Positions 28,351 through 43,318 are shown, counted from the stretch's first letter. The stretch is DNA of 64,000 nucleotides from an uncultured Candidatus Marinamargulisbacteria bacterium (GCA_964517775.1 CAZFCP010000008.1:23369-87368), one strand, 5' to 3'. Program-made: numbers and translations. Notes: generated by a model from the letters alone, not told the origin.

Positions 28351-29844
28351 ATGGGTATTTTACGTAGCATAATGCAGTGGCTGTTATGTGTGGTTTTGTT
28401 TGGATACTTTATCCTTTTTGGTTGGGCAACAAATTTGAACTGGGATCTCAACCAGCATGTGGGCATGGTAGATAGTTTTTTGAAAAATGGGAGCTTTTAT
28501 TCCGGGATTACTCATCAGTTTTTTCCTGAATCGGCTTATTTCCCCGGAGTGTCTTTTTTAGGTTATTTTTTTCATTACTTGGGGTTTTATGATATCAGGT
28601 TCCCATTAATTGTTACTGCGTCTTGTTTTGGGATGATCATGATTGCATTGCTTGTGCACTGCGCTTTTATACTTTTTGATGTTCCTAAGTGGCTAACAAC
28701 GACTTTTATTTTAGGCTGGTATAGTTTGGGTGCTTTTGAAGGTTTTGAAGGTTATATTGATTATTTAAAAGAGTTTAAGCCGGATACAGCTTCACTTGTT
28801 TTTGGGATTTTAGCTTTTTTACTTGCGAAGAAAGCTTCTTTTTTTTCTGAACAGAAACAGAGTGAAAAAGAGATGTTCTGGTGGTTTTTATGTGCACTAA
28901 GTTTGTGTTTATCGTTACTTTTTAAGCAGCAAGCTTTAGCCTTTTTTATAGCCTTTTTTTTGAGTGCTTTATTTGACTCTTCCTTATCACTTTCTGTAAG
29001 AAAAAAGCTTATTATTGTTTCGGGATTGTCTTTTTTTATGGCTGTTGCCATTCTTATGCAGATTCCTAATAGTTTTTTTGGAACTTTTTTTGTGATGTCT
29101 AAGCATCCGTTATCTATTTATTGTGGGTTAAAATCTCTGTATGTATTTTTTACTAAGTCCAAAACAATGCTGTATAGCATTCCTTTGCTTTTTCTTGTCA
29201 TTAAAGGAGTTAGAGCTCCTCATTTTTTTGGTGAAAAATCGTGGATTTTTTTATCATGTTCGTGGATGTTTTTTTCATTACTATCTGCTTTTAAAGAAGG
29301 AGGTAATATAGGTAATATTGAAGTGGGGGCTCTTGTATTTATTCCAGCTGTTTTAGGATTGATTTATAAAACTGTTTTTGATTCTCAGACAGAATTTTAT
29401 CATAAAAAACATGTTCAGTTTTTTTTGTTTCTTTTTTTTGGATTACTCCTATCCAGAGTTTTATTTAATACAGATTCAAATGAACAGCATGTATACGGAC
29501 TGTGGAAAAAAATTCAATACAATACGTCTAAAGAAACCGTTACACTAGAATTTCTAAAGCCGTATTCGGGTTCTAAAGCTCTTATTGATGCTGATATTTA
29601 TCCTATAGCTAAGCAGGCAAATCTTTTAGTTATTTCAGATGTTATTACTGCTTTTCACTACCATATAGCGGGTATAAAGCCCGATTATGTTGATCAGGCT
29701 CTTTTACGCAAGGAATTCGATGTTGTTTATGTGTTAAAAGATTATAGGAGAGATGCAATTATAAACAGAACCTTATTAATAGAACATTATTCGCAAATTC
29801 AGACTCCACCGGGTTTTATAGGGTACCTCTGGGAAAAACGTTAA
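28351..29844 (+). CDS. Polytopic membrane protein, GT-C (ArnT/PMT-like) glycosyltransferase candidate
   Basis: GAGGA RBS before ATG 28351; more than 10 TM segments, YFPG, KPD and FKQQ motifs; visibly AT-rich; convergent with the GT2/GtrA operon. Confidence 0.7.
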   Translation: MGILRSIMQWLLCVVLFGYFILFGWATNLNWDLNQHVGMVDSFLKNGSFYSGITHQFFPESAYFPGVSFLGYFFHYLGFYDIRFPLIVTASCFGMIMIALLVHCAFILFDVPKWLTTTFILGWYSLGAFEGFEGYIDYLKEFKPDTASLVFGILAFLLAKKASFFSEQKQSEKEMFWWFLCALSLCLSLLFKQQALAFFIAFFLSALFDSSLSLSVRKKLIIVSGLSFFMAVAILMQIPNSFFGTFFVMSKHPLSIYCGLKSLYVFFTKSKTMLYSIPLLFLVIKGVRAPHFFGEKSWIFLSCSWMFFSLLSAFKEGGNIGNIEVGALVFIPAVLGLIYKTVFDSQTEFYHKKHVQFFLFLFFGLLLSRVLFNTDSNEQHVYGLWKKIQYNTSKETVTLEFLKPYSGSKALIDADIYPIAKQANLLVISDVITAFHYHIAGIKPDYVDQALLRKEFDVVYVLKDYRRDAIINRTLLIEHYSQIQTPPGFIGYLWEKR

Positions 29845-30437
29845 GGTTTCCAGATCGGAATGTTATGCATTTTCGTGCAAATGGCATCGATCTGAAGCCT
29901 ATTTTGGTTCAGGTAGTCTCTGTATACGACGATATCATTCGGTCTTCCCTGAAGCTCAGGAGACACGAGACAGAGCTGAAATCCAGCCTCTTTTAAGCGT
30001 GAAAATGTATCAGGAGTCAGTGGCAGTTTTGTAAAACAATCGACCCACACCCATTTTACTTTCCCTTTTAGGGCAAGTATCGTATCCAGACCTTCATATT
30101 CGGAAAAACGAATGGCCGTATTGGATTCCTGAAAGTGAGTAAGAAGGTGAATAATCATTGGAAATGAAGAATCCAGAAAAAAATAAGAGGTAATCCCGTG
30201 TTTTTTTAAAAGCTCGAGGATAGGGATTTCAATACGTTCACTTTTGATATTTAAAATAATGAGTTTGTGGGTGTAATGGCCAAGAAACTCGTCCAGATCC
30301 TCTCCGTCTTTAAAAGGATCATGTTGCAGGATGAGTTTTCCATCTTTTCCGTCACGAATATCCACTTCAATCCCGTAATGAGACGGTACGGTTTTTAAGG
30401 CCTCAATGGTATTGATTCTGTGCGCGATGTAAAGCAT
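29841..30437 (-). CDS. GDPD/PLC-like phosphodiesterase-fold protein
   Basis: IAHRIN...GIEVDIR...LQHDP catalytic-type motifs of the GDPD/PI-PLC TIM barrel. Confidence 0.7.
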   Translation of the reverse strand: MLYIAHRINTIEALKTVPSHYGIEVDIRDGKDGKLILQHDPFKDGEDLDEFLGHYTHKLIILNIKSERIEIPILELLKKHGITSYFFLDSSFPMIIHLLTHFQESNTAIRFSEYEGLDTILALKGKVKWVWVDCFTKLPLTPDTFSRLKEAGFQLCLVSPELQGRPNDIVVYRDYLNQNRLQIDAICTKMHNIPIWKP

Positions 30438-30439
30438 TC

Positions 30440-31159
30440 TTAATCCTCCAGATGAGAGTCAGACAGTTTTCTTTTTAGAGTCATACTGTAAGACACCGTA
30501 CGCTTAATAAATTTGAAACGGGATTTCAGGCCTGTATTCCAGCTGGATTGCCCGGCAACTCTGGGTGGAAAATGTACAGGAAATCGAAGGATAGTGTGTT
30601 TTTTGACTTTAGCCATCACATAGATATAAAGGTCTAAAGAAAAATCAAAAGGGGGATGTTTAAGGCTTTGGAAAAAGGTTTTGGAAAACAGGGTGGGTTG
30701 CGCGTTAATATCCCAAAGAAATGTTTTAAATAAAAGCGATTCAAAACAGGACATGCCCGTTGTAAAAAGCGTATCAAAAAACGAGCGTCCTTTTCGATTC
30801 CCTTTTACTAAAATGGAGGTGTTGGAGGATCCTGAAAAAAAATCCAATCCTTTAATCACATCATGTGGATCGGTTTGAAGGTCGGCATGAGTCCAGCCTA
30901 AAATCTCACCTGAAGCCGCATATAATCCTTGTAATATCCCATGTCCATATCCCTGATTTTTTTCTACGTGTACCACTTTAATGAAGGCATGTTGTTTACG
31001 GATCTCTTCTAAAAGGATGGCCGACGAATCGGTTGACCCGTTGTTTACTAAAATAACTTCGTAATCAGGTTTGTCTGAAAAGACACGGTGCAGTTTGTCT
31101 GCAAGTGCTTTTAAGTTTCCGGATTCATTATAACAAGGGATGACCAGCGAAAATTTCAT
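30440..31159 (-). CDS. GT2 polyprenol-phosphate glycosyltransferase (DPM/GtrB-like)
   Basis: LVIPCYNE, VNNGSTD, NQGYGHGI, WTHADLQTDP, FPPRVAGQS. Confidence 0.9.
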   Translation of the reverse strand: MKFSLVIPCYNESGNLKALADKLHRVFSDKPDYEVILVNNGSTDSSAILLEEIRKQHAFIKVVHVEKNQGYGHGILQGLYAASGEILGWTHADLQTDPHDVIKGLDFFSGSSNTSILVKGNRKGRSFFDTLFTTGMSCFESLLFKTFLWDINAQPTLFSKTFFQSLKHPPFDFSLDLYIYVMAKVKKHTILRFPVHFPPRVAGQSSWNTGLKSRFKFIKRTVSYSMTLKRKLSDSHLED

Positions 31160-31539
31160 AGGGTTTTCTCCTTAAATACCCAGAATTTTTGACCTAAAAA
31201 ATTAATAACCATGGAGGTTGCCGTGGCGATAACAAAGCCTATCCATTTTGGAGAGGGCACACTATACAAACACAGCTCGTTTACACCGACGTTGACCCAA
31301 AGTGAACACAGATAAAGAAAGAAAAATTTATACAGCCCGGATCGTGTGTGTGGTGCCGACGAAAATGTAAACTGTTTGTTTCCTAAAAAAGCAACACAGG
31401 TTCCTGTTATAAAGGACAGTGCTTTGGCTAAAGCCGTGGTGAGATAGGGATGTGAAAGCGTATACACTAAAAAATCGGCCCCTGTTGCGCAAAGTCCTAT
31501 GATAACAAAACGGGATAACTGCTTCATAAGGTTTTTCAT
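31156..31539 (-). CDS. GtrA-family flippase-like protein
   Basis: 4 TM segments, RFVIIG...NKQFTF...NFLGQKFWVF; ATG 31539 gives an ATGA overlap with the upstream gene. Confidence 0.9.
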   Translation of the reverse strand: MKNLMKQLSRFVIIGLCATGADFLVYTLSHPYLTTALAKALSFITGTCVAFLGNKQFTFSSAPHTRSGLYKFFFLYLCSLWVNVGVNELCLYSVPSPKWIGFVIATATSMVINFLGQKFWVFKEKTL

Positions 31540-33101
31540 GACTGTTTTTTCCGGGAAAAAAAGGCATCCCAATAGCGATAGGTTTCATAGTCTGTTGGTG
31601 TTCCCCAGCAGATATAGTGATCGACCTCAAAAACCTTAACGGTTTTCCCAAGATCTATCAGCATTTGCATGCAGCTGTCCACGTAGTATTCCTGATTAAT
31701 CGTTGTTTTTGTATCGATAAGTCGCTGATACGCCTCAAAAAATAATCCAACGGTTCTAAAATAAAAGGCTCCAACAATCGCATGATCATTTTCAGGACTG
31801 TTAGAAACCGGTGTTTTTACCGATACGGAAAGAGCTGTGTTCTGTTCTGTTGCCTGTACCCATCCATACATATGAGGATTTTTTTTGGAGCTGGGATGAT
31901 GTTTAAACGTGAAAATAATGGCATCTACGGTGTCATCCTGAGTAAGCTCCAGAAACTGTTGAGCTTTGTATCTTAGTCCGTTATCGCAGGCTCCGATAAT
32001 AAGTTTAAAATGGGATGGTAGTCCGGAAAGGCCTTCAGCACAGGTTGTTGCCTGTCCGTTTGTGACGGAATCGAGAAAGGTTATGTCTCCTTTTTGATGA
32101 AGAAACGCGTGAAGAGGCGTGTCTTTAATGGATGACAATGCCACTACCTGTGTCCGTTGTGTTTGAGGCAGTTCGGACAACGCTTGAATCACCATGGGTT
32201 TTTGCTGAACGGGCAGAAGTGGTTTGGATGTCGCATATCCTTCTTTTGCAAATCGTTCTCCTTTACCGGCCATGGGCATAAGTGTAATCGACTCTGATCC
32301 AAGATGAGGTGGCTGAAAATCCTCTTCTGCATTCAAAAAAAAGCGAGACCATACCAAATACTCTTCAAGATCCTGAGGGGTTCCCCATTGAAGCATATGG
32401 TCGATTTCAAAAATCCTTACCTGATACCCCTGCTCAACCAGTTCGTTGAAAGCGAGGCTGACATAAAACTCCCCGTTTGTATGATGGTTTTTTTGTTGTT
32501 GTGCCGTAAAAGCCTTCTTCATAAGTGCGCCGGAACGAAAATAATAGGTGCCGTCTGATGCAAATTCCTCGTTACGGTTTTGGGTAAACGGCTCTTTTTC
32601 TTTGATTTGTTGAAGCCAGAGGTTTTTTTCCTTGATAAAGGCATAATGGGTTGATCCTGCCATATGAGGATGAAATCCTTTATACGCGGTAATGGCTCCA
32701 TCGGCTTTTAGTCTTCGGACTGTGGATAAAAAATCAGCATAATTCCAGGCTTTGGAAAAATCACAATAATTAATGATAATTTCTTCGTCATCCGGAATGG
32801 CATCAAATACCTGTGACACCGCAAAAACAGGCCCAAGTTTATGTGGAGGAATGGATAAAATCGTTGCATGCTGAGCATAGTGCTGAAGCATCTGCCTCAG
32901 AGAGGTTGAACGCAGATGTTCGTCATTACAAATAAAAATAAACCGGGTGTCTTTGGGAAATAAATCAATAATATGCGCAATGATGGGCTTCCCTTCAACC
33001 TGGATTAAGGGTTTGGGATCTGTGTATCCGGCATCAAGAAATCGTTTTCCGATTCCTGACATAGGAATAACAACGGTTACTGCTGTAGATTTTGTCTCCA
33101 T
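31536..33101 (-). CDS. Tandem two-domain nucleotidyltransferase
   Basis: Two NTP-transferase N-terminal motifs: IPMSGIGKRF..AGY..PKPLI and MPMAGKGERF..EGY..SKPLL; each half ends in WGTP. Confidence 0.85.
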   Translation of the reverse strand: METKSTAVTVVIPMSGIGKRFLDAGYTDPKPLIQVEGKPIIAHIIDLFPKDTRFIFICNDEHLRSTSLRQMLQHYAQHATILSIPPHKLGPVFAVSQVFDAIPDDEEIIINYCDFSKAWNYADFLSTVRRLKADGAITAYKGFHPHMAGSTHYAFIKEKNLWLQQIKEKEPFTQNRNEEFASDGTYYFRSGALMKKAFTAQQQKNHHTNGEFYVSLAFNELVEQGYQVRIFEIDHMLQWGTPQDLEEYLVWSRFFLNAEEDFQPPHLGSESITLMPMAGKGERFAKEGYATSKPLLPVQQKPMVIQALSELPQTQRTQVVALSSIKDTPLHAFLHQKGDITFLDSVTNGQATTCAEGLSGLPSHFKLIIGACDNGLRYKAQQFLELTQDDTVDAIIFTFKHHPSSKKNPHMYGWVQATEQNTALSVSVKTPVSNSPENDHAIVGAFYFRTVGLFFEAYQRLIDTKTTINQEYYVDSCMQMLIDLGKTVKVFEVDHYICWGTPTDYETYRYWDAFFSRKKQS

Positions 33102-34129
33102 TTTTCTGCTTCCCAGTGGACAAGATAGTGAAGCTCTTCAGAATCGAGCTCTTGAGGTGATGATGGACTTAATGCAAGTGTCATAAAATGGGCTAGTAGA
33201 ACATCTTCGTTGTCTCGGGCTTTTTTTACGGTCTGGGCAATAGAATAGAGCCTCGACTGAGCTACCACAAAACGAGGCCAAACCTGATGTTTTTGATAAT
33301 ACGCCAGCAGCCCCTGTTTTTCGTGAAGAGGTGTTAAAGTCGGAATCGAAAATCCCCCGTAAATGACCTGATCTGGAAATAACGGAGGCTGAACAAGCCA
33401 TTCCGGATGATCCTGAATATAGGCCAGAATGGTTGCGTTTTGAACTGGCACAACACTCCACCACTGTTGCGTACAGTCATAAAACTCCGTCTGAATACGG
33501 GAGGCTGTATGATGGTCTGAAAGATCAACATTTAAATAAGAGGCACAACGGTCTGTAACCTGATGCTGCAGCGTCATAACCTCCTCAATCGAGTCTCCAG
33601 ATACAATCAGTCCATGATTTTGTAACAGCCCGATCGATGCGGATTTTTTTGAAGAGCTGCATTCCCGTTTGAGGGCTAACCCCAATGGAACCCCAGGCGT
33701 TGCATAGTCAATAGTGAGGCTGTCCGGATATAAATCCAACCAGAGTTCTTTCCAGTTTTTTTGGCAGGCTAACGCTGAAATAACCCAGGGATGACTATGT
33801 AATACTACTTTTCCAAGCAAGGCATGGAGATACACTTCTATGGACGGTTTTACAGGTAAACTATCAAATCCAAGCTGCGTTTTGCCAAAAAGCTCCTGTT
33901 CTGACGCTGAAAGATGATCCGGAATCTGATTCAAAACCTCTGCGATGATTTGGGGATTGACCTCGATCCATCCTTTTTTTTCATCGACTTCTGATAACGA
34001 AAACCCTGAGGCTTTAATCAGCATGACGGTTGGGCTGAGTTTGATGGAGGTATTGCCTCCTCCGGCCTGAGTCCAGTCTAATCGCGTTCCAGCCTGTTTA
34101 GACAGCGTTACAAAGTCCGAAAGACTCAT
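33077..34129 (-). CDS. Class II aldolase/adducin-family protein
   Basis: AGGGNTSIK, KASG, KPSIE, HSHP, LLQNHGLIVSG. Confidence 0.88.
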   Translation of the reverse strand: MSLSDFVTLSKQAGTRLDWTQAGGGNTSIKLSPTVMLIKASGFSLSEVDEKKGWIEVNPQIIAEVLNQIPDHLSASEQELFGKTQLGFDSLPVKPSIEVYLHALLGKVVLHSHPWVISALACQKNWKELWLDLYPDSLTIDYATPGVPLGLALKRECSSSKKSASIGLLQNHGLIVSGDSIEEVMTLQHQVTDRCASYLNVDLSDHHTASRIQTEFYDCTQQWWSVVPVQNATILAYIQDHPEWLVQPPLFPDQVIYGGFSIPTLTPLHEKQGLLAYYQKHQVWPRFVVAQSRLYSIAQTVKKARDNEDVLLAHFMTLALSPSSPQELDSEELHYLVHWEAEKWRQNLQQ

Positions 34130-34776
34130 AATCCCAATCCTTCATAAAGAGGTTCAAATCCTTTTTCAGGCTGAAAATGAAATCCGGTAATTCCCAGATT
34201 TTCCGCGCCTTCCACATCTTTTTTGAGATCGTCTCCAATCATACATACCTCATGAGGGTGAAGCGATACTTTATCCAGGGCAAGCCGAAATGGTGAGGGA
34301 TGCGGTTTATCAAATCCGGCCTCTTCACTTGTTACAAGAAAGGTGATGGCCGTAGAAAGTCCCAATGTTTTGATCTTTCTGAACTGAATATCTGCCACCA
34401 GATCTGTGACGATGACTAATGGAATCTGTTTGTAGTGTAACCGGTTGATGAATGCCATACATCCCGGGAAAAGCACCATGGTGTTTAAAAATGTTTCCCA
34501 ATACAGCTCTGTGGCCTCATACGCAACAAACAATGGTAGGGACAGGGATTCACAAAGCCCCTGGAAATAAAGCAGTCTGTGGTGACTGGCGGCTGTTCCC
34601 TTAAGACGAGTATGTGTTGTATGCCTGCTGATATCATAAGCTGCCTGAAGCGATTCCACAGTATGTTGTGTGTGATGAGACAGCCATGTTAAAGCTGCCG
34701 ACAGCCCTGCCTGATGCGCAGGATCATAGGGGTAAAGTGTATTATCCAAATCACAAAAAACAGCTTTAAACGTCAT
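34126..34776 (-). CDS. HAD-superfamily hydrolase
   Basis: DLDNTLY motif I, VTD, KPHP, MIGDDLKKD. Confidence 0.9.
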   Translation of the reverse strand: MTFKAVFCDLDNTLYPYDPAHQAGLSAALTWLSHHTQHTVESLQAAYDISRHTTHTRLKGTAASHHRLLYFQGLCESLSLPLFVAYEATELYWETFLNTMVLFPGCMAFINRLHYKQIPLVIVTDLVADIQFRKIKTLGLSTAITFLVTSEEAGFDKPHPSPFRLALDKVSLHPHEVCMIGDDLKKDVEGAENLGITGFHFQPEKGFEPLYEGLGL

Positions 34777-36811
34777 GATCCAGCCTTCCTTTTTTTGAGG
34801 CTAACACCATAAGAAAAATGAGCTGTATAAATCCGTAGTAGCCGTCTGCCCAATTGGGTTGGGATGAGAGAAGCTCGTCAGTGTTTGGAATAAATGTTTC
34901 AAAGCAGTAGGATAACAAAGCTGTCGGGATCGGCTGATGAAGTATAATGCTTTGGTTTTTAAGATCATCTTTGTAATCCCATTCTATGGAAATAGAATGA
35001 ATTTCAAGTGTAGCGATAATTTCTTCAAGATGAAGTGTCGTATCACAGGTTATTTCCAGAGACAATGTTCCTTCATTATTTTTTTTGAAAAACCTGATGA
35101 CAAGGTCGGCAAAGTTTTTTTGAGGAGAAATAAACGTTTCGGCATCTGCTTTTCGTGATTTTATCTGATTTAAAATATGATCGTGACTATGACCTCTTTT
35201 ATCCTTGTCTCTATTGATTTTCCAAAATATACGTAATGATTCTTCTGTATCCAGATAAATTTTAATATCTATGTTTTTTCGTAAAATGGGAAGATAAAAC
35301 GGATGAAGTCCGGAAATGATAATAAAATCTTTGGGCATAATCTTTTTAGGAGGATCGAATTTTCCCGTGTGATGGTTGTAATCCGAGCGCCAGACAGGTT
35401 TCCAGTGTTTGAGTGAAATAAGATGGTCGGCCTGACGATGAAGCGCATTGGCCTTGGGATTAAGATGCGTAATATGATTCCAGTGCTGATCATGCCTTTC
35501 CCATTTATGATCCCCATCTCCTTCAATTTTAAGTACAGATTCCCCTAAAATCTTGTGAAGTTCCTGGTTCAGGGTTGTTTTTCCTGTTCCGCTATCTCCG
35601 CCAATGCCAATAATAGTGGCCAGATTTTGTGTGTAAATCGCATTGCTTTTCACCCCATTGGTATAAAGGGCATAGATACACCCGCTTAGACCTATTTGAA
35701 GTGCTGTAAAACAGAGATTTGGCCATTTTTCATCCCCAAAAAACTTCCACATCAGCGGCTGTCTAAGCCATTCCAGATCTACATAATCCGGAATATAAAA
35801 GTGTATAAAAAAGATGAGATAGACAACATTCCAGACTGAAAATAAAAAAATGTATTGAGGATTTTTCTCCTGATGTTTGATGAGAAAATGTACCATCGTT
35901 GGAATAAACCAGACGTACCAGCCGGGAGAGGGTTTGATTAAAAACAGAAAAATGGCAAAGGCTATGCCAACATAGGCATAAAGAAGGTCAAGATTTACTT
36001 TTTTATAGCACCAGAACCGTAGGCAAAGGATGCCCAATAAAAATACAGGCCAGTATAATTTAAGCGATCCTACTGATAAAAACGAGCTGAACAGTTGCAT
36101 TTGTTTGGGGTTCACTAAAACAATATGGTAAAACCCAAAACTGAATAAATAAGGAAGCGTACACAGGATAGGAATCCCTATACTGAAAACCAACGTGTGG
36201 ATGCTTGCCTGCAGCCCGTGTCGTTTGTATAAAAACATAAGAAATAGAGGCACAACCATAATAAGGTGAAATTTTGTGGCAAGCCCAAGGCCTAAAAATA
36301 ATCCGGTTTTTGTCCAGTTTTTTTCATGTAATCCCACTAAACTGCCCATAAAAAATGCCGTGGAAATTAAATCTAGCTGTCCATGTATAAACACAGCGTA
36401 CAAAATAATGGGATTGGCAAAATAGAGGAGGGTTACCAGCGTTTTTTTGCGTGGGAAAATCGACAGTAAGCTCCAAAATATAAAGATGTCTGCAAAAAGA
36501 GAGGGGAGTTTATAACATAAGTTTTCAAAAAGTGGAGCCGAAAATAAAGACGAAATCCAGACAAAGGGCGACAGTATCCACAACATCAAAGGAAAATAAG
36601 GGAAATCAAACAGAAGATGCTGTTGAACCATCTTATCCCAGGGGTTTGTCAGTATGTTTTCTAAAAAAAGCTTAATAAACGGGATAAAAAGCTGATTCTG
36701 GAATGCTGAGGAAAATAAAGTGGCGATACTTATTTTAATAGCAAGAATCACTCCAATCATAAAGTAGAAAGAATATTTTCGTGGAATAGAGATCACCGGC
36801 TTGATTTTCAT
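34766..36811 (-). CDS. Fusion: GT-C (GT87/PIG-M-like) membrane domain plus phosphoribulokinase-like kinase domain
   Basis: N-terminus FPYFP, KLPSLFAD, NPIILY...HGQLD, ATKFH; C-terminus GGDSGTGKT (404-412), NPKAN, YNHHTGKFDPP, GLHP, WKINRD..KRGH. Confidence 0.85.
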   Translation of the reverse strand: MKIKPVISIPRKYSFYFMIGVILAIKISIATLFSSAFQNQLFIPFIKLFLENILTNPWDKMVQQHLLFDFPYFPLMLWILSPFVWISSLFSAPLFENLCYKLPSLFADIFIFWSLLSIFPRKKTLVTLLYFANPIILYAVFIHGQLDLISTAFFMGSLVGLHEKNWTKTGLFLGLGLATKFHLIMVVPLFLMFLYKRHGLQASIHTLVFSIGIPILCTLPYLFSFGFYHIVLVNPKQMQLFSSFLSVGSLKLYWPVFLLGILCLRFWCYKKVNLDLLYAYVGIAFAIFLFLIKPSPGWYVWFIPTMVHFLIKHQEKNPQYIFLFSVWNVVYLIFFIHFYIPDYVDLEWLRQPLMWKFFGDEKWPNLCFTALQIGLSGCIYALYTNGVKSNAIYTQNLATIIGIGGDSGTGKTTLNQELHKILGESVLKIEGDGDHKWERHDQHWNHITHLNPKANALHRQADHLISLKHWKPVWRSDYNHHTGKFDPPKKIMPKDFIIISGLHPFYLPILRKNIDIKIYLDTEESLRIFWKINRDKDKRGHSHDHILNQIKSRKADAETFISPQKNFADLVIRFFKKNNEGTLSLEITCDTTLHLEEIIATLEIHSISIEWDYKDDLKNQSIILHQPIPTALLSYCFETFIPNTDELLSSQPNWADGYYGFIQLIFLMVLASKKGRLDHDV

Positions 36812-36820
36812 GGTAACAGT

Positions 36821-37732
36821 TTAAATCTTTTGAGGAATCATGGCAAAGTCTTTAAATTGTTCAAATTGTTCCTGAAGCTGATCCACTGTTAAGTTTTTGA
36901 GCTGATTTAAGCTAAAGTCTCTTACCGTATGCGATGAGATAAGCGTGCCTGCTACCACAGCTTTACGGAAAGCGTCTTCGTTAAGTTCTTTTGCCTGAGC
37001 CAGGTAGCCTGAAAATCCGCCTGCGAAGCTGTCTCCAGCCCCAGTCGGATCGACCAGCTCTTCCAACGGAAAAGCAGGGCAGGTAAAAAATTCTTTGCCG
37101 TTATACATCACCGAGCCATGTTCGCCTTTTTTAACAATCACGCGTTTCGGCCCCAGCTTCAATACTTCCGCCATTGCCTGAATCACATTATCTATTTTCG
37201 TTAATAATCTGATTTCCTGATCGTTTAAAATCAATACATCCACTAATTTAAGCGTTTCTTTCAAATTGTCACAATGGCTTTCAATCCAATAATTCATACT
37301 GTCCAGTACAATAAGTTGAGGTGAAGAAAACTGTTCAATCGCTTTTTTCTGTAAAACCGGATCAATATTTGCCAGAAAAACGATCTTGCTGTCCTGTGCA
37401 TTTTGAGGCACTTTCGGGTCGAATTGCAGTAGAACATTCAGGTCGGTTTGTACCGTAAAGGCCTGATTCATATCCGCTTTGTAATAGCCTTTCCAGTGAA
37501 ACGTGTCGCCATCCAGTTTTTGAATCCCGTTCACCTGGATGCCTCTGTTTTCAAAGAAATTTAAATGTTCGTTTGGAAAATCTTTTCCCACCACGCTGAT
37601 CAAATGCACTGGCGAAAACAAGCTGGCTGCTGTACCTGCGTAAGAGCCTGACCCTCCTAAAATACGGTCAAACTGGCCTTTTGGGGTTTCTATACTGTCA
37701 AATGCAACGGTTCCGATAATAGCAACGCTCAT
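36821..37732 (-). CDS. PfkB-family carbohydrate kinase
   Basis: GGSGSY, KKGEHG, DPTGAGDSFAGGF. Confidence 0.92.
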   Translation of the reverse strand: MSVAIIGTVAFDSIETPKGQFDRILGGSGSYAGTAASLFSPVHLISVVGKDFPNEHLNFFENRGIQVNGIQKLDGDTFHWKGYYKADMNQAFTVQTDLNVLLQFDPKVPQNAQDSKIVFLANIDPVLQKKAIEQFSSPQLIVLDSMNYWIESHCDNLKETLKLVDVLILNDQEIRLLTKIDNVIQAMAEVLKLGPKRVIVKKGEHGSVMYNGKEFFTCPAFPLEELVDPTGAGDSFAGGFSGYLAQAKELNEDAFRKAVVAGTLISSHTVRDFSLNQLKNLTVDQLQEQFEQFKDFAMIPQKI

Positions 37733-37741
37733 GATAACTCC

Positions 37742-40471
37742 TTAATGTTGAAACTGATGGATGGCGGCCTCACAGCGGGCACAAACCTTGTCGTGATTGA
37801 TGGGCAGAAAACGCCAGCACCGTTCACATTTTTCTTCTGTTGTTTTTCCAACTTTGATGTCTGATAATGCCGAATTTACGGTCACTTTGCTGACAATCAA
37901 AAACGATTCCCAGTCTTGAAATCCAAAACCGTCCGGAATTTCTACAACCGCTTCAAGAAAGGTTTTGATGGTTTTGTCGGCCCGTAATGGCTCGAGTTGT
38001 TGATAAACGGCGTCTCTTGCCGACAATAACGACTGAACCGTTTTTTGCAAAGACGGATTATCCCAGTCCGGTTGCTCTGCCGGGTAGGCCAGATCATGCA
38101 CGGATGGTGTCGATTTATCTGAGAAATAGGCGTAGGCATCGTCCATGGTGAAGGCTAAAATCGGGGCACAAAGCTTCAATAATGTGGTGACGATGTGATG
38201 CAAAACGGTTTGAGTACTTCTGCGTTCGTGACTGTCTTTTTTGCCGCAATACAGCCTGTCTTTTACCATATCCAGATACATCGAGCTTAACGTAATTGCA
38301 CAAAAATGATGAACAGCCTGTGTAAGCAGATGAAACTCATAGTTTTTATACTGATGAGTGACGGTTTTGATAAGCGTGTTCAGCTCTAATAACGCCCATT
38401 GATCCAAAGTGTTTAGCTTTTCATACGAGATGGCATCTGTGGTGCTGTTAAAATCAAACAGGTTACTTAAACAGAACCTCATGGTATTTCTTACTTTGGA
38501 GTAGCTGTCCCTGCATTGATTTAAAATGGATTGAGAAATCGCAATATCATTTTTAAAATCCGTACTCGCAATCCACCATCTCAACACATCGGCGCCGTAA
38601 TCCTTGATAACCTGCTCGGGAGAAATCACGTTCCCCATGGATTTGCTCATTTTCCGGCCTTTATCATCCACCAGAAAACCATGCGTTAAAACCGCTTTGT
38701 ACGGAGCTTTCCCCAACGCACCAACCCCAATCAGCAGAGACGATTGAAACCACCCCCGATGCTGATCCGACCCTTCAAGGTACAAATCCGCCTGAGTATG
38801 TTCCGCTCCAAATTGTGAAAGCACCGTAGCAAAACTCGCCCCGGATTCGAACCACACATCCAGAATATCCGTCTCTTTTTCAAACGCCGTCCCGCCACAT
38901 TTAGAGCAGGCCGCACCAGTCGGAAGCAGTTCCTCCGCCGATTTATCAAACCATAATTGCGTTCCATGTTGTTTAACGGCCTCTACAACCGCTTTGTTAA
39001 ATGGCCCGGTTAGTTCCGAATGGCTGCAGGTTTTGCAGGTAAACGCCGGGATGGGAATGCCCCAAAAACGTTGCCGTGAAATACACCAGTCCGGTCTGTT
39101 TTCAATCATCGATGTAATGCGGTTTTCACCCCATGCCGGATACCAGGTTGTCGCCTTGATAGCCTCCAACGCCGATTGACGCAGGGTTTTGCCCGTATGC
39201 GGCATGATTTTATCCATGGCAACAAACCATTGCTGGGTAGCCCTGAAAATCACAGGGTTTTTACAGCGCCAGCAATGCGGATACGAGTGAGTAATAAATT
39301 TTAATTTCAGAAGATTCCCTTTTTCTTCCAGACGCTGACCGATGGCTTTGTTAGCCTCAAAAACCGGTGTTCCAGCCCATTCTACGTCCTGAGTAAAACG
39401 GCCCTTTCCGTCTACGGGCATGATGGTTGGCAATCCGTATTCAAGCCCAACTTTATAGTCGTCCTGACCGTGTCCAGGTGCAATGTGTACAAAGCCCGTT
39501 CCGTCTTCTTTTGTTACGTAATCAGCGGTTACAACCGTCGATGTCCGACCCAAAAATGGGTGATTGGCTACCGTGTTTTTTAGTTCTGCTCCTGAAAGCG
39601 AGCCTAAAATGTCTGTGTCTTGAAGATCTAAAAGTGCGGTCAATGGTTCTACAAGCTCCTGAACCATAACCAGGCAGCCTTTTGAGGACTTCAAAACGAC
39701 ATAGGTAAACTCGGGATGAGCCGCGATGGCTACGTTGGCTGGCAATGTCCACGGTGTTGTTGTCCACACCATAACCGATACAGGTTCATTCCCGGCGATT
39801 TTTGCTAAAGCCTCGCTAGGTGTTTGAACAGGAAATTTAATATAAATAGAGGGAGATTTATGATCGGCGTATTCGATTTCAGCCTCAGCCAATGCTGTTT
39901 CGCAATGGGTACACCAGTGAATCGGTTTTGATCCTCGATACACCAGCCCGTTTTCTGCCATTTTCCCGAACATCGCAAGCACATTAGCCTCATATTCCGG
40001 ATTTAGGGTCAGGTACGGTTTTTCCCAGTAGCCACGAATCCCCAACCGTTTAAAATCGTTACGCTGAGTCTCAACATACGACAAAGCAAACTGCTTACAG
40101 CGTTCCCGAAACCAGGGAATATCTTTCTTTTTTTCTTCTTCCTTATTTTTTTGAAGCTCTTTAATAACCTGTGTTTCAATCGGTAATCCATGACAGTCCC
40201 AGCCTGGAACATAAGGCGAATAGTGCCCGTTCATGGTATTAAATCTCACAATAATATCTTTTAAAATCTTATTTAAAGCATGCCCCATATGGATGTTTCC
40301 GTTAGGGTAAGGCGGACCGTCATGCAAAATAAACGATGACGATTGAGGCTGCGGATTGTAAGCTGTTTTCTCCCAATCTTCTAAAAAACGAGGCTCGACA
40401 GTTGCAAGTCCGGCACGGATGGAAAACTCGGTTTGAGGAAGATTAACCGTATCTTTTAATGAAATGGGCAT
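37742..40471 (-). CDS. ileS: Isoleucine--tRNA ligase (type 1)
   Basis: LHDGPPYPNG, HMGH, WCISRQRFWG, KMSKS, C-terminal CERCW Zn finger. Confidence 0.98.
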   Translation of the reverse strand: MPISLKDTVNLPQTEFSIRAGLATVEPRFLEDWEKTAYNPQPQSSSFILHDGPPYPNGNIHMGHALNKILKDIIVRFNTMNGHYSPYVPGWDCHGLPIETQVIKELQKNKEEEKKKDIPWFRERCKQFALSYVETQRNDFKRLGIRGYWEKPYLTLNPEYEANVLAMFGKMAENGLVYRGSKPIHWCTHCETALAEAEIEYADHKSPSIYIKFPVQTPSEALAKIAGNEPVSVMVWTTTPWTLPANVAIAAHPEFTYVVLKSSKGCLVMVQELVEPLTALLDLQDTDILGSLSGAELKNTVANHPFLGRTSTVVTADYVTKEDGTGFVHIAPGHGQDDYKVGLEYGLPTIMPVDGKGRFTQDVEWAGTPVFEANKAIGQRLEEKGNLLKLKFITHSYPHCWRCKNPVIFRATQQWFVAMDKIMPHTGKTLRQSALEAIKATTWYPAWGENRITSMIENRPDWCISRQRFWGIPIPAFTCKTCSHSELTGPFNKAVVEAVKQHGTQLWFDKSAEELLPTGAACSKCGGTAFEKETDILDVWFESGASFATVLSQFGAEHTQADLYLEGSDQHRGWFQSSLLIGVGALGKAPYKAVLTHGFLVDDKGRKMSKSMGNVISPEQVIKDYGADVLRWWIASTDFKNDIAISQSILNQCRDSYSKVRNTMRFCLSNLFDFNSTTDAISYEKLNTLDQWALLELNTLIKTVTHQYKNYEFHLLTQAVHHFCAITLSSMYLDMVKDRLYCGKKDSHERRSTQTVLHHIVTTLLKLCAPILAFTMDDAYAYFSDKSTPSVHDLAYPAEQPDWDNPSLQKTVQSLLSARDAVYQQLEPLRADKTIKTFLEAVVEIPDGFGFQDWESFLIVSKVTVNSALSDIKVGKTTEEKCERCWRFLPINHDKVCARCEAAIHQFQH

Positions 40472-42390: not shown

Positions 42391-43191
42391 CTAGTCTACC
42401 TCGACCATTACGAGGGTTTGATCGTCTTTTAAGATTTCTGATTGCGAAAATGAGGCTATTCCAAAGTAAATATCCTCTAACTGCTGCGATAAGGCTGATT
42501 TGGATGTAAAACGGATTAACGCTTCCCACCTGTCGGATCCGAATTCTTCTCCTTGAGGGTTTCTGGCTTCTAAAAGTCCGTCTGTATAAAAAATGATGCG
42601 GTCTCCTTTTTCAAGCGCCACTTCTGTTAGAGGATAGTCCTCATTGTCGAACATACCTAAAAACAGTCCGTTTTGAGAAAGAGGGGTAATTTGTCCCCGT
42701 CTTAAAAGCAAGGCTGGCGGATGTCCGGCATTGGAGATAAGCATTTTTTTATTTTGAGGATAAAAACGTGCCGAAATACCGGTGACATAACGGATTTGAG
42801 AGTTTTCGAGATAGGGGATCAACGTGTTGTTCGTAAGCTCCAATATCTGAGAAGGAGATTTTGCAGTTTTTAAAATTTCACCTAATAATCCAGATGTTAA
42901 AGCCATCACTAATGCTGACGATACGCCGTGTCCTGCTACATCTCCAAGAACAATGTCCAGACACTGTTGCCGCTGATCCTGATACTGAAAAATTCCAGAT
43001 TGCGACGACGACAGTGACCCTCCTGTCAGCGTATGGCCTTTAAACACATAAAAATCTCCGCCAACATTATCCGCCGGAATACACCGCTTTTCGATTTTAA
43101 ATCCCGGAATCTGAGGCGGCTCCACGGACAGAAGTCCCTGTTGTACTTTTTTGGCCATTTGAAGCTCTTGGGCGTACTGATCGTGTTGCAT
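42391..43191 (-). CDS. PP2C/SpoIIE (RsbU-like) Ser/Thr phosphatase
   Basis: VGGDFY, GDVAGHGVSSAL, NAGHPP, FYTDGLLEA, DDQTL; start at ATG 43191 with AAAGGA RBS, because the longer track ORF runs through the tRNA. Confidence 0.9.
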   Translation of the reverse strand: MQHDQYAQELQMAKKVQQGLLSVEPPQIPGFKIEKRCIPADNVGGDFYVFKGHTLTGGSLSSSQSGIFQYQDQRQQCLDIVLGDVAGHGVSSALVMALTSGLLGEILKTAKSPSQILELTNNTLIPYLENSQIRYVTGISARFYPQNKKMLISNAGHPPALLLRRGQITPLSQNGLFLGMFDNEDYPLTEVALEKGDRIIFYTDGLLEARNPQGEEFGSDRWEALIRFTSKSALSQQLEDIYFGIASFSQSEILKDDQTLVMVEVD

Positions 43192-43214
43192 TATTGCTGA
43201 AAATCCTTTACTAT
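43186..43214 (+). promoter_or_regulatory. Sigma70-type promoter for tRNA-Cys
   Basis: TTGCAT(43186-43191)-N17-TACTAT(43209-43214), 13 nt before the tRNA. Confidence 0.6.
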
Positions 43215-43227
43215 TGACCTCCGTTTT

Positions 43228-43301
<74 letters not shown>

Positions 43302-43318
43302 AAACATCGTGGGTTGGG

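Follow-up and report, generated by a model that had tools for sequence, protein, structure and literature searches.

Positions 29841 to 36811 of the DNA analysed here (the window, 64,000 nt from an uncultured Candidatus Marinamargulisbacteria bacterium; GCA_964517775.1 CAZFCP010000008.1:23369-87368) hold a cassette of seven genes on one strand, in which neighbours overlap or sit 2 nt apart. The cassette is headed by a single open reading frame (ORF) that joins a membrane domain resembling GT-C glycosyltransferases to a complete kinase of the phosphoribulokinase (PRK) type. Behind this fusion gene follow, in order, a HAD phosphatase, a class II aldolase-fold protein, a tandem nucleotidyltransferase, GtrA, a GT2 glycosyltransferase and a GDPD-fold protein. 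The principal new result of this work is the conservation of these seven genes as a cassette with the fusion in front; a full-text literature search found no description of a GT-C-PRK fusion or of the cassette. The features are as follows.

34766..36811, minus strand: fusion gene, 681 aa, a single ORF encoding a GT-C-like membrane domain and a whole PRK-type kinase
35636..36811, minus strand: N-terminal membrane domain of the fusion, aa 1-392, with 12 predicted transmembrane (TM) helices
34766..35635, minus strand: C-terminal domain of the fusion, aa 393-681, equivalent to a whole PRK protomer by Pfam, NCBIfam, Foldseek and residue mapping
34126..34776, minus strand: HAD phosphatase, 216 aa, overlapping the fusion gene by 11 nt, best family NF053830
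33077..34129, minus strand: class II aldolase/epimerase-fold enzyme, 350 aa, PF00596 at E=2.6e-14
31536..33101, minus strand: tandem nucleotidyltransferase, 521 aa, two sugar-1-phosphate NTP-transferase domains, PF00483 matched in two stretches
31156..31539, minus strand: GtrA-family small membrane protein, 127 aa from ATG, PF04138 at 77 bits, E=1.7e-21
30440..31159, minus strand: GT2 glycosyltransferase, 239 aa, PF00535 at E=1.5e-22, polyprenyl-phosphate-sugar synthase type
29841..30437, minus strand: GDPD/PI-PLC-fold phosphodiesterase by AlphaFold (AF2) and Foldseek, 198 aa, soluble and compact

The original prediction, made from the sequence of the window, described one in-frame fusion, and the single 681-aa ORF bears this out: the reading frame crosses the domain junction uninterrupted, with no stop and no frameshift. 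Alignment of 30 independent full-length homologs shows G386, S389, N390 and Y393 of the inter-domain linker to be invariant. Because this linker is conserved in frame across independent homologs, a sequencing error hiding a stop between the domains is excluded, and an assembly artefact is ruled out by an in-frame junction kept in hundreds of independent assemblies. How often the fusion recurs, a point that had been marked for survey, is answered by a search of 5.8 billion proteins, which returned 517 matching clusters. The best 120 of these 517 match at 91-100% query coverage and 39-50% identity, and their carriers include Babeliales/Dependentiae, Omnitrophota, Obscuribacterales, Nitrospirota, Oceanidesulfovibrio, Margulisbacteria, Aliarcobacter, Cytophagaceae, Leptospira, Flavobacteriaceae and Paenibacillus; full-length homologs are overall 38-50% identical and come from many phyla. 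A GTDB scan with one genome per species found relatives of the fusion encoded in at least 358 species, with Melainabacteria making up many of the carriers. A look-up of the window protein itself in public assemblies found no record of it.

When the membrane domain alone was used as a HMMER query in an exhaustive scan, 830 clusters at 50% identity were recovered (515 at E<=1e-10), and 117 of the 150 best relatives are 640-850 aa long, that is, of fused length. The shorter relatives are interpreted as contig fragments, because each ends where the match ends. The membrane domain is essentially known only in its kinase-fused form, and the fusion architecture is real and ancient. Structure models were predicted on database homologs of the window proteins; that of the full-length fusion (AF2) has a pLDDT of 88 and a pTM of 0.80. 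Public databases name relatives of the fusion 'uridine kinase', 'phosphoribulokinase' or 'hypothetical protein'. From its sequence, the ORF appears to encode a genuine bifunctional inner-membrane protein, for which both catalytic functions are predicted.

All kinase motifs quoted by the original prediction as resembling class II PRK are found in frame: GGDSGTGKT (aa 404-412), LNPKAN (450-455), YNHHTGKFDPP (478-488), GLHP (501-504), WKINRDKDKRGH (530-541) and RKADAETFISPQK (553-565). Their parallels, LDPRAN, YNHETGxIDPPE, EGLHP and WKIQRDMAERGHS, are seen when the domain is aligned to solved cyanobacterial PRKs. The Pfam family PF00485, which spans both PRK and uridine kinase activities, matches aa 400-577 (E=6.8e-39, 134.2 bits against a cutoff of 22). 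Placement between the two activities was made by score comparison. The best-scoring family is NCBIfam NF005655 (PRK07429, plant/cyanobacterial PRK) at 206.3 bits, E=6e-61, whereas the uridine kinase equivalogs TIGR00235 and NF004018 reach 87.8 bits (cutoff 220) and 89.2 bits (cutoff 180), respectively, and the NCBIfam class I PRK model scores 33 bits. The same ranking, with PRK best, was obtained for 30 of 30 members of the fusion family.

Comparison with solved structures gave the same order. The window kinase scores 100-145 bits on PRKs and 36-54 bits on uridine kinases, and a family profile built from 64 fusion sequences scores 211 bits on a cyanobacterial PRK structure, 205-210 bits on the 'Cyanobacteria specific PRK' entries 9qko and 9qkn, 182 bits on the archaeal PRK 5b3f, 165-171 bits on plant PRK, 78-89 bits on uridine kinase structures and 61 bits on the class I PRK 1a7j. 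A Foldseek search with the fusion model aligned 299-312 columns to 9qko, 9qkp and 9qkn (E~5e-18, TM 0.77-0.79), and also retrieved 5b3f. The alignment spans the whole PRK protomer including the C-terminal beta-sheet (dimerisation) domain, and the PRK-specific C-terminal domain of ~100 aa is present in the fusion kinase; uridine kinases aligned over only ~185 columns. In HMMER alignments the core of the fusion kinase is 40% identical to Hyella PRK and 37% identical to Synechococcus and Thermosynechococcus PRK, and these two PRK types are themselves 41% identical to each other. The closest solved structures, 9qko, 9qkp and 9qkn, are described as 'cyanobacteria specific PRK' and derive from Hyella/Chroococcidiopsis PCC 6712 and Gloeocapsa PCC 73106; a literature search found no paper behind them. 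The molecule in 9qkn is named 'Uridine kinase', yet the structure record is titled 'cyanobacteria specific PRK'. The Hyella PRK has a P-loop without cysteine (GDSAAGKT), as does the fusion kinase, and the two have the YNHxTGKFDPP motif in common.

In CrPRK, the catalytic dyad is Asp57/His105 and the ligands of ribulose 5-phosphate (Ru5P) are Arg64, Tyr103, Arg159, Asp160 and Arg164 (bioRxiv 10.1101/422709; PMC9978339). The dyad D57/H105 corresponds to D432/H480 of the fusion, R64 to R439, Y103 to Y478, and R159/D160/R164 to R534/D535/R539. None of these seven fusion residues varies in the 30-sequence alignment, and in 64 sequences each is at least 90% conserved. The P-loop, predicted at G405-T412, is likewise fully or nearly invariant, and R439 and Y478 are, by correspondence, the predicted ligands of the Ru5P phosphate. 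The regulatory Cys16/Cys55 pair of phototroph PRKs is absent, T409 and an invariant E430 taking its place. The kinase domain is thus of PRK type by every sequence and structure criterion applied, and is best described as a separate, unregulated branch. It has the ~290-aa protomer fold of class II and archaeal PRKs, with the C-terminal sheet, P-loop, Asp/His dyad and Arg/Tyr contacts to Ru5P, but differs from class II PRKs in sitting behind a 12-TM domain, in lacking Cys16/Cys55 and in scoring below the NCBIfam PRK cutoff. Its setting is also different: the fusion occurs in heterotrophs and in a glycosylation cassette, not in a cbb operon, with no RuBisCO nearby. A Synechococcus RbcL probe and RbcL motifs detected no RbcL-like sequence in the window, as the original prediction had stated, or in 80 related 20-kb loci.

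The membrane domain is predicted to have 12 TM helices (AF2 secondary structure, hydropathy and charge), with both termini cytoplasmic. The predicted N-terminus is K/R-rich, the K/R-rich loops (FPRKK, EKNWTK, YKRHG, YKKVN and KHQEKN) all fall on the cytoplasmic side in keeping with the positive-inside rule, and the last helix places the kinase in the cytoplasm. The first periplasmic loop is predicted to be long (aa 33-102). Residues F45, F70, P71, D108, P134, D147, K180, W298 and W301 are invariant in the most diverse alignments and all lie at the predicted periplasmic face, so that in this topology the conserved FPY, D108, HxQxD147, K180 and W298/W301 are opposite the K/R-rich loops. An acidic residue often, but not always, directly precedes FPY (D69); the candidates for the catalytic acid are D108 and D147, neither of which varies.

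Searches with the first ~390 residues of the window protein alone gave no significant Pfam match and no match in the PDB. Among 30 family members, 11 match the Pfam family GT87, with sporadic matches to ALG3, PMT_2 and PIG-U, and two full-length relatives exceed curated thresholds, one for GT87 (P0007, 30.9 bits, cutoff 25) and one for ALG3 (P0085, 31.7 bits, cutoff 23.6). A profile of 14 N-domain sequences retrieved GPI mannosyltransferase 1 from the PDB (E=2e-5), aligning FPYxPLM with YRYTPLL. Foldseek with the full-length model returned only kinase matches among its 50 best rows. GT87 (PimE-like), ALG3/GT58 and GPI mannosyltransferase I/GT50 resemble the N-domain in being polytopic and in having a long first extracytoplasmic loop and an aromatic-Pro motif; the N-domain differs in being very divergent, in falling below all thresholds in the case of the window protein, and in having no stand-alone close relatives. 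A GT-C-like membrane domain, as originally described, is therefore probable rather than proven, with relatives that pass the GT87 and ALG3 thresholds and a relationship that is remote.

The HAD phosphatase encoded next to the fusion carries a DxDxT motif at D9/D11. Its best match is NF053830, the haloarchaeal ribulose-1,5-bisphosphate (RuBP) 5-phosphatase family, at 166.5 bits and E=7.5e-49, with the next family at 102 bits; across 20 HAD orthologs, NF053830 gives the lowest E-value of any family (1e-52) and is one of five families matched by all 20. The characterised haloarchaeal phosphatase acts strictly on RuBP, releases ribulose 1-phosphate (Ru1P) and shares an operon with a class II aldolase (PMC9700705). 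In the aldolase-fold protein of the cassette, the phosphate-loop residues G25, N26 and S28 and the metal-binding histidines H111, H113 and H172 are invariant, and the catalytic glutamate, E98, nearly so, in a comparison guided by an E. coli FucA sequence. The protein has a C-terminal extension of ~150 aa, and its best PDB match is the uncharacterised protein 3m4r. It scores only 16 bits (E=0.005) on NF053831, the FucA-type Ru1P aldolase family, and by this measure is a member of another subfamily.

Each domain of the tandem nucleotidyltransferase has the GxGxR...K signature, with RmlA-like and GlmU-like matches on both halves. The GtrA protein is a putative flippase, or accessory protein, for a lipid-linked sugar. 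The top seven PDB rows for the GT2 protein represent four different proteins, all of them Dol-P-Man synthase (5mlz, aligned over 218 aa), ArnC or GtrB (sll0501) entries, and its top solved relatives are all polyprenyl-phosphate glycosyltransferases. The GDPD-fold protein is the most conserved of the cassette (50-65% identity) and has an N-terminal HR...E.D...HD motif. Its AF2 model (pLDDT 93) is a TIM barrel that Foldseek matches to the GDPD 2pz0 (E=4e-7, TM ~0.7); the Pfam GDPD model gives only E=0.013, and NCBI names some orthologs as PI-PLC/GDPD family. NCBIfam has no model for the full-length fusion or for the GDPD-fold protein.

Searched by tblastn, 80 related loci from many phyla have the partner genes in the same order and orientation. 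Partner frequencies were determined by hidden Markov model (HMM) searches of the 52 loci with enough flanking DNA: the nucleotidyltransferase was detected in 49, GT2 in 48, the aldolase-fold protein in 47, the 198-aa GDPD-fold protein in 46, the HAD in 44 and GtrA in 23, and the last of these is accordingly regarded as optional in the family. Two of the 52 loci have no partner at all, and both hold second fusion paralogs of Obscuribacterales genomes that have a complete cassette elsewhere. This second paralog (L017, L019/L084, L024) is ~740-760 aa long and adjoins no cassette, the complete copy lying elsewhere in the same genomes (L013, L010). In L084, it adjoins a PMT_2-type GT-C gene. The same cassette is present on annotated contigs of Leptospira levettii, Paenibacillus tianmuensis, Oceanidesulfovibrio marinus and Aliarcobacter cryaerophilus, within polysaccharide loci in three of these four, and the GtrA gene occupies the same position in Leptospira, Paenibacillus and Aliarcobacter. 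Genes for dTDP-rhamnose lie near the cassette in only 8 of 80 loci, so this association is not a defining one.

Gtr O-antigen glucosylation (GtrA/GtrB/GtrC), Arn lipid A modification (ArnC/ArnT/ArnEF) and the mycobacterial PpgS/Rv3632/Rv3779 system share a three-part logic: the sugar is first attached to polyprenyl phosphate on the cytoplasmic side, the lipid-linked sugar is then flipped, and a GT-C enzyme carries out the transfer on the outside. The cassette has the same components, a GT2 loader, a GtrA-type small membrane protein and a putative polytopic GT-C-like transferase. Unlike those of the Gtr and Arn systems, its GT-C protein carries a cytoplasmic kinase and its GT2 is short (239 aa) and has no TM helices of its own. 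The cassette also adds four soluble enzymes (HAD, aldolase-fold, tandem nucleotidyltransferase and GDPD-fold), which imply an unusual, privately synthesised sugar. The surface glycosylation role put forward in the original prediction is strongly reinforced by these partners (GtrA, GT2, nucleotidyltransferase and the others, in the same order across phyla), and stays an inference. Read from its genes, the system looks like a Gtr/Arn-like one in which PRK opens the sugar pathway and the fusion of GT-C to PRK is obligate.

Domain architecture, catalytic-residue conservation, gene order across phyla and family assignments come directly from the analysis; the pathway proposed from them is as follows. 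In the cytoplasm, the PRK domain would phosphorylate Ru5P at C1 to give RuBP, from which the HAD would strip the 5-phosphate to leave Ru1P. Working as a pair, kinase and HAD would amount to a 'mutase' that spends one ATP to shift the phosphate from C5 to C1. This sequence from Ru5P through RuBP to Ru1P is probably the start of the pathway, and is its best-supported part, the later steps being inferred from folds alone. The aldolase-fold enzyme would then remodel the pentulose 1-phosphate, probably by epimerisation, and the tandem nucleotidyltransferase, possibly aided by the GDPD-fold enzyme, would produce a pentose or pentulose activated as a nucleoside diphosphate (NDP) sugar. The DPMS/ArnC-like GT2 would load this sugar onto polyprenyl phosphate, GtrA would help the lipid-linked sugar across the membrane, and the GT-C domain, with its conserved residues facing the periplasm, would move it to an acceptor in the cell envelope.

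The haloarchaeal non-carboxylating pentose bisphosphate pathway similarly has an RuBP-5-phosphatase-type HAD adjoining a class II aldolase-fold enzyme, without RuBisCO, and in both that pathway and the proposed one the HAD acts after the RuBP-forming step. The haloarchaeal pathway obtains RuBP from ribose 1,5-bisphosphate isomerase, is catabolic and ends in dihydroxyacetone phosphate and glycolaldehyde (PMC9700705). In the cassette, by contrast, RuBP would come from PRK and the module would be anabolic and embedded in glycosylation; the haloarchaeal Ru1P aldolase and the aldolase-fold protein are only distantly related.

The original prediction had the kinase tethered to the transferase. The physical fusion stands, but a direct hand-off of product does not: the kinase site is predicted to be cytoplasmic and the transferase site periplasmic, and the proposed route needs at least five steps, enzymatic or flipping, to get from one to the other. 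With the sites on opposite membrane faces, the fusion is not expected to channel its product. Its most likely benefits are a fixed stoichiometry and the anchoring at the membrane of the first committed step, a cytoplasmic one; perhaps the PRK sheet also dimerises the transferase.

Taken as a whole, the reading of the locus as a self-contained, horizontally spread cassette for envelope glycosylation, in which PRK starts the activation of a sugar that is then handled on a lipid carrier by Gtr/Arn-like logic, is given a probability of roughly 0.55. Several observations count against it. The kinase lies below the NF005655 cutoff (206.3 against 236 bits, 216 of 326 model positions matched) and is for that reason a relative, not an ortholog, of characterised PRK; the HAD, at half the NF053830 equivalog cutoff (166.5 against 330 bits), is likewise a relative of the characterised phosphatase and not its ortholog. 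HAD and GtrA are missing beside the fusion in ~15% and ~55% of complete loci, respectively. The Obscuribacterales paralog without a cassette retains all kinase catalytic residues, which hints at a link between kinase and transferase tighter than simple precursor supply, and leaves room for more direct coupling or for a membrane-proximal substrate. In Ru1P the phosphate is on a non-anomeric carbon, and a plain route of nucleotidyltransferase followed by GT2 would yield no glycosyl donor; an extra step must therefore create an anomeric phosphate. The roles given to the aldolase-fold and GDPD-fold enzymes are guesses. These two are the candidates for generating the anomeric phosphate, the GDPD-fold enzyme perhaps by way of a 1,2-cyclic phosphate between the two nucleotidyl transfers, an idea that is speculative. 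On the side of the transferase, the window protein scores only 15 bits on GT87 (E=0.02, cutoff 25), and homology to GT-C enzymes, though recurrent, is remote. The GPI mannosyltransferase 1 match disappears from the PDB searches with a 64-sequence full-length profile and a 26-sequence N-domain profile, and is treated as weak because these broader profiles fail to reproduce it.

Of the alternatives, the one that survives best takes the kinase as PRK-like in fold but active on a different phosphorylated substrate, for instance xylulose 5-phosphate, another ketose phosphate, or a lipid- or nucleotide-linked sugar phosphate at the membrane. RuBP would then be no intermediate, and the cassette would still build a lipid-linked sugar. 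The shortfall against the PRK subfamily cutoff, the identity of just 37-40% to solved PRKs, the intact kinase of the orphan paralogs and the lack of an obvious chemical route leading from Ru1P to a glycosyl donor all fit this explanation, and a permanent membrane tether would suit a membrane-proximal substrate. We nevertheless consider it rather unlikely: every PRK residue for binding of the Ru5P phosphate and for catalysis is conserved, the two solved PRK clades are as far from each other as the fusion kinase is from them, and the product of the next gene has an RuBP-specific phosphatase family as its best match.

It is improbable that the N-domain is instead a membrane anchor, flippase or polymerase-like module, with transfer carried out by another enzyme. 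Such a role would agree with the failure of the window protein to reach the Pfam threshold of any GT-C family, with the lack of a match to solved structures for the broad N-domain profile, and with the canonical position before FPY in loop 1 having no strictly invariant acidic residue; the absence of GtrA from about half of the loci would leave room for a flipping function. Close full-length relatives nonetheless pass the curated GT87 and ALG3 thresholds, the sporadic matches (GT87, ALG3, PMT_2, PIG-U) all belong to the GT-C clan, and D108, D147 and K180 are invariant at the predicted periplasmic face, as in GT-C enzymes. The cassette would otherwise be without a transferase for its apparent lipid-linked sugar.

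A uridine/cytidine kinase supplying nucleotides to the neighbouring nucleotidyltransferase, a notion prompted by the 'uridine kinase' labels of database relatives and of the molecule in 9qkn and by the double coverage of PF00485, is very improbable and was rejected as an assignment, with HMM scores (88-89 bits against cutoffs of 180-220, and 206 for the PRK model), family-profile scores on structures (78-89 bits for uridine kinases, 165-211 for PRKs), structure coverage including the ~100-aa C-terminal domain, catalytic residues and the title of the 9qkn record all on the side of PRK. By these scores the kinase groups with the plant/cyanobacterial and archaeal PRKs; clustering with uridine kinases would have counted against the original prediction.

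PRK and RuBisCO count as the signature pair of Calvin-cycle enzymes, and PRK genes serve as markers of autotrophy in metagenomes. The fusion kinase, of PRK type and with all its catalytic residues in place, is hard-wired to a putative envelope glycosyltransferase in hundreds of species that are heterotrophs, among them Leptospira, Flavobacterium, Paenibacillus, Clostridia, Campylobacterales, Chlamydiae, Dependentiae, Melainabacteria and Margulisiibacteria, within a cassette that is compact and portable. This suggests that non-photosynthetic bacteria use ribulose bisphosphate chemistry for decoration of the envelope. If so, RuBP would have another role, an anabolic one, in the building of glycans, an activated pentose or pentulose not known before would remain to be discovered along with the surface glycan it enters, and the labels 'uridine kinase' and 'phosphoribulokinase' on the fusions would mislead metabolic reconstructions. 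The origin of cyanobacterial PRK could then also be tested against a large non-photosynthetic sister family.

The fusion family is abundant in Margulisiibacteriota and Melainabacteria, non-photosynthetic sisters of Cyanobacteria, and the host of the window is probably such a non-photosynthetic relative. Since the fusion kinase is about as close to cyanobacterial PRKs as two PRK clades are to one another, it and the Calvin-cycle PRK may share a direct ancestor. A more far-reaching version, which we offer tentatively and do not expect to hold in full, would place RuBP as an obligatory intermediate in a widespread pathway unconnected with CO2 fixation. In it, the pentulose 1-phosphate made by the membrane-tethered PRK and the RuBP 5-phosphatase would be converted by the aldolase-fold epimerase, the two nucleotidyltransferase domains and the PI-PLC/GDPD-fold enzyme to a true NDP-ketopentose or pentofuranose donor and displayed on the envelope by way of polyprenyl phosphate, the PRKs of both kinds having a common ancestor. 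A 1,2-cyclic phosphate would in that case perhaps move the phosphate onto the anomeric C2.

The window is otherwise ordinary chromosomal DNA, with MetE, AcrB, an ABC-F protein, PurB and IleRS. Two features lie directly upstream of the fusion gene.

36821-37732, minus strand: PfkB-family sugar/nucleoside kinase, ribokinase-like, 303 aa, 9 nt upstream of the fusion
37742-40471, minus strand: IleRS

Among named matches, the best for the IleRS are from Candidatus Margulisiibacteriota (50-62% identity), while its best hit overall is a JGI metagenome protein at 77%; this suggests an uncultured member of that phylum as the source of the window. The PfkB-family kinase is 9 nt downstream of IleRS, and the two apparently belong to one operon with the fusion. 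Neither gene occurs in any of the 80 related loci, and for this reason they are not counted as cassette members; the PfkB-family kinase may feed pentose phosphate in this organism only, or may be unrelated. Convergent to the other end of the cassette is an ORF for a polytopic membrane protein of 501 aa (28339-29844, plus strand), which has no Pfam or NCBIfam match. It sits in the lowest-GC stretch of the window (34.5%, 28001-30000) and is not conserved by the cassette elsewhere; it could encode an acceptor-side enzyme or be an unrelated island gene. Between this ORF and a giant ORF of 2816 aa (18671-27121, minus strand), whose only family match is DUF3638 (aa 1813-1983, 37 bits), lies a membrane protein resembling NicO-type nickel/cobalt transporters (27438-28172, minus strand). 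The only Rfam match of the window at the gathering threshold is a single tRNA gene (43228-43298, plus strand). It overlaps the start of an opposite-strand ORF for a SpoIIE-like phosphatase (42391-43302), the called TTG start of which is, given this overlap, probably too far upstream.

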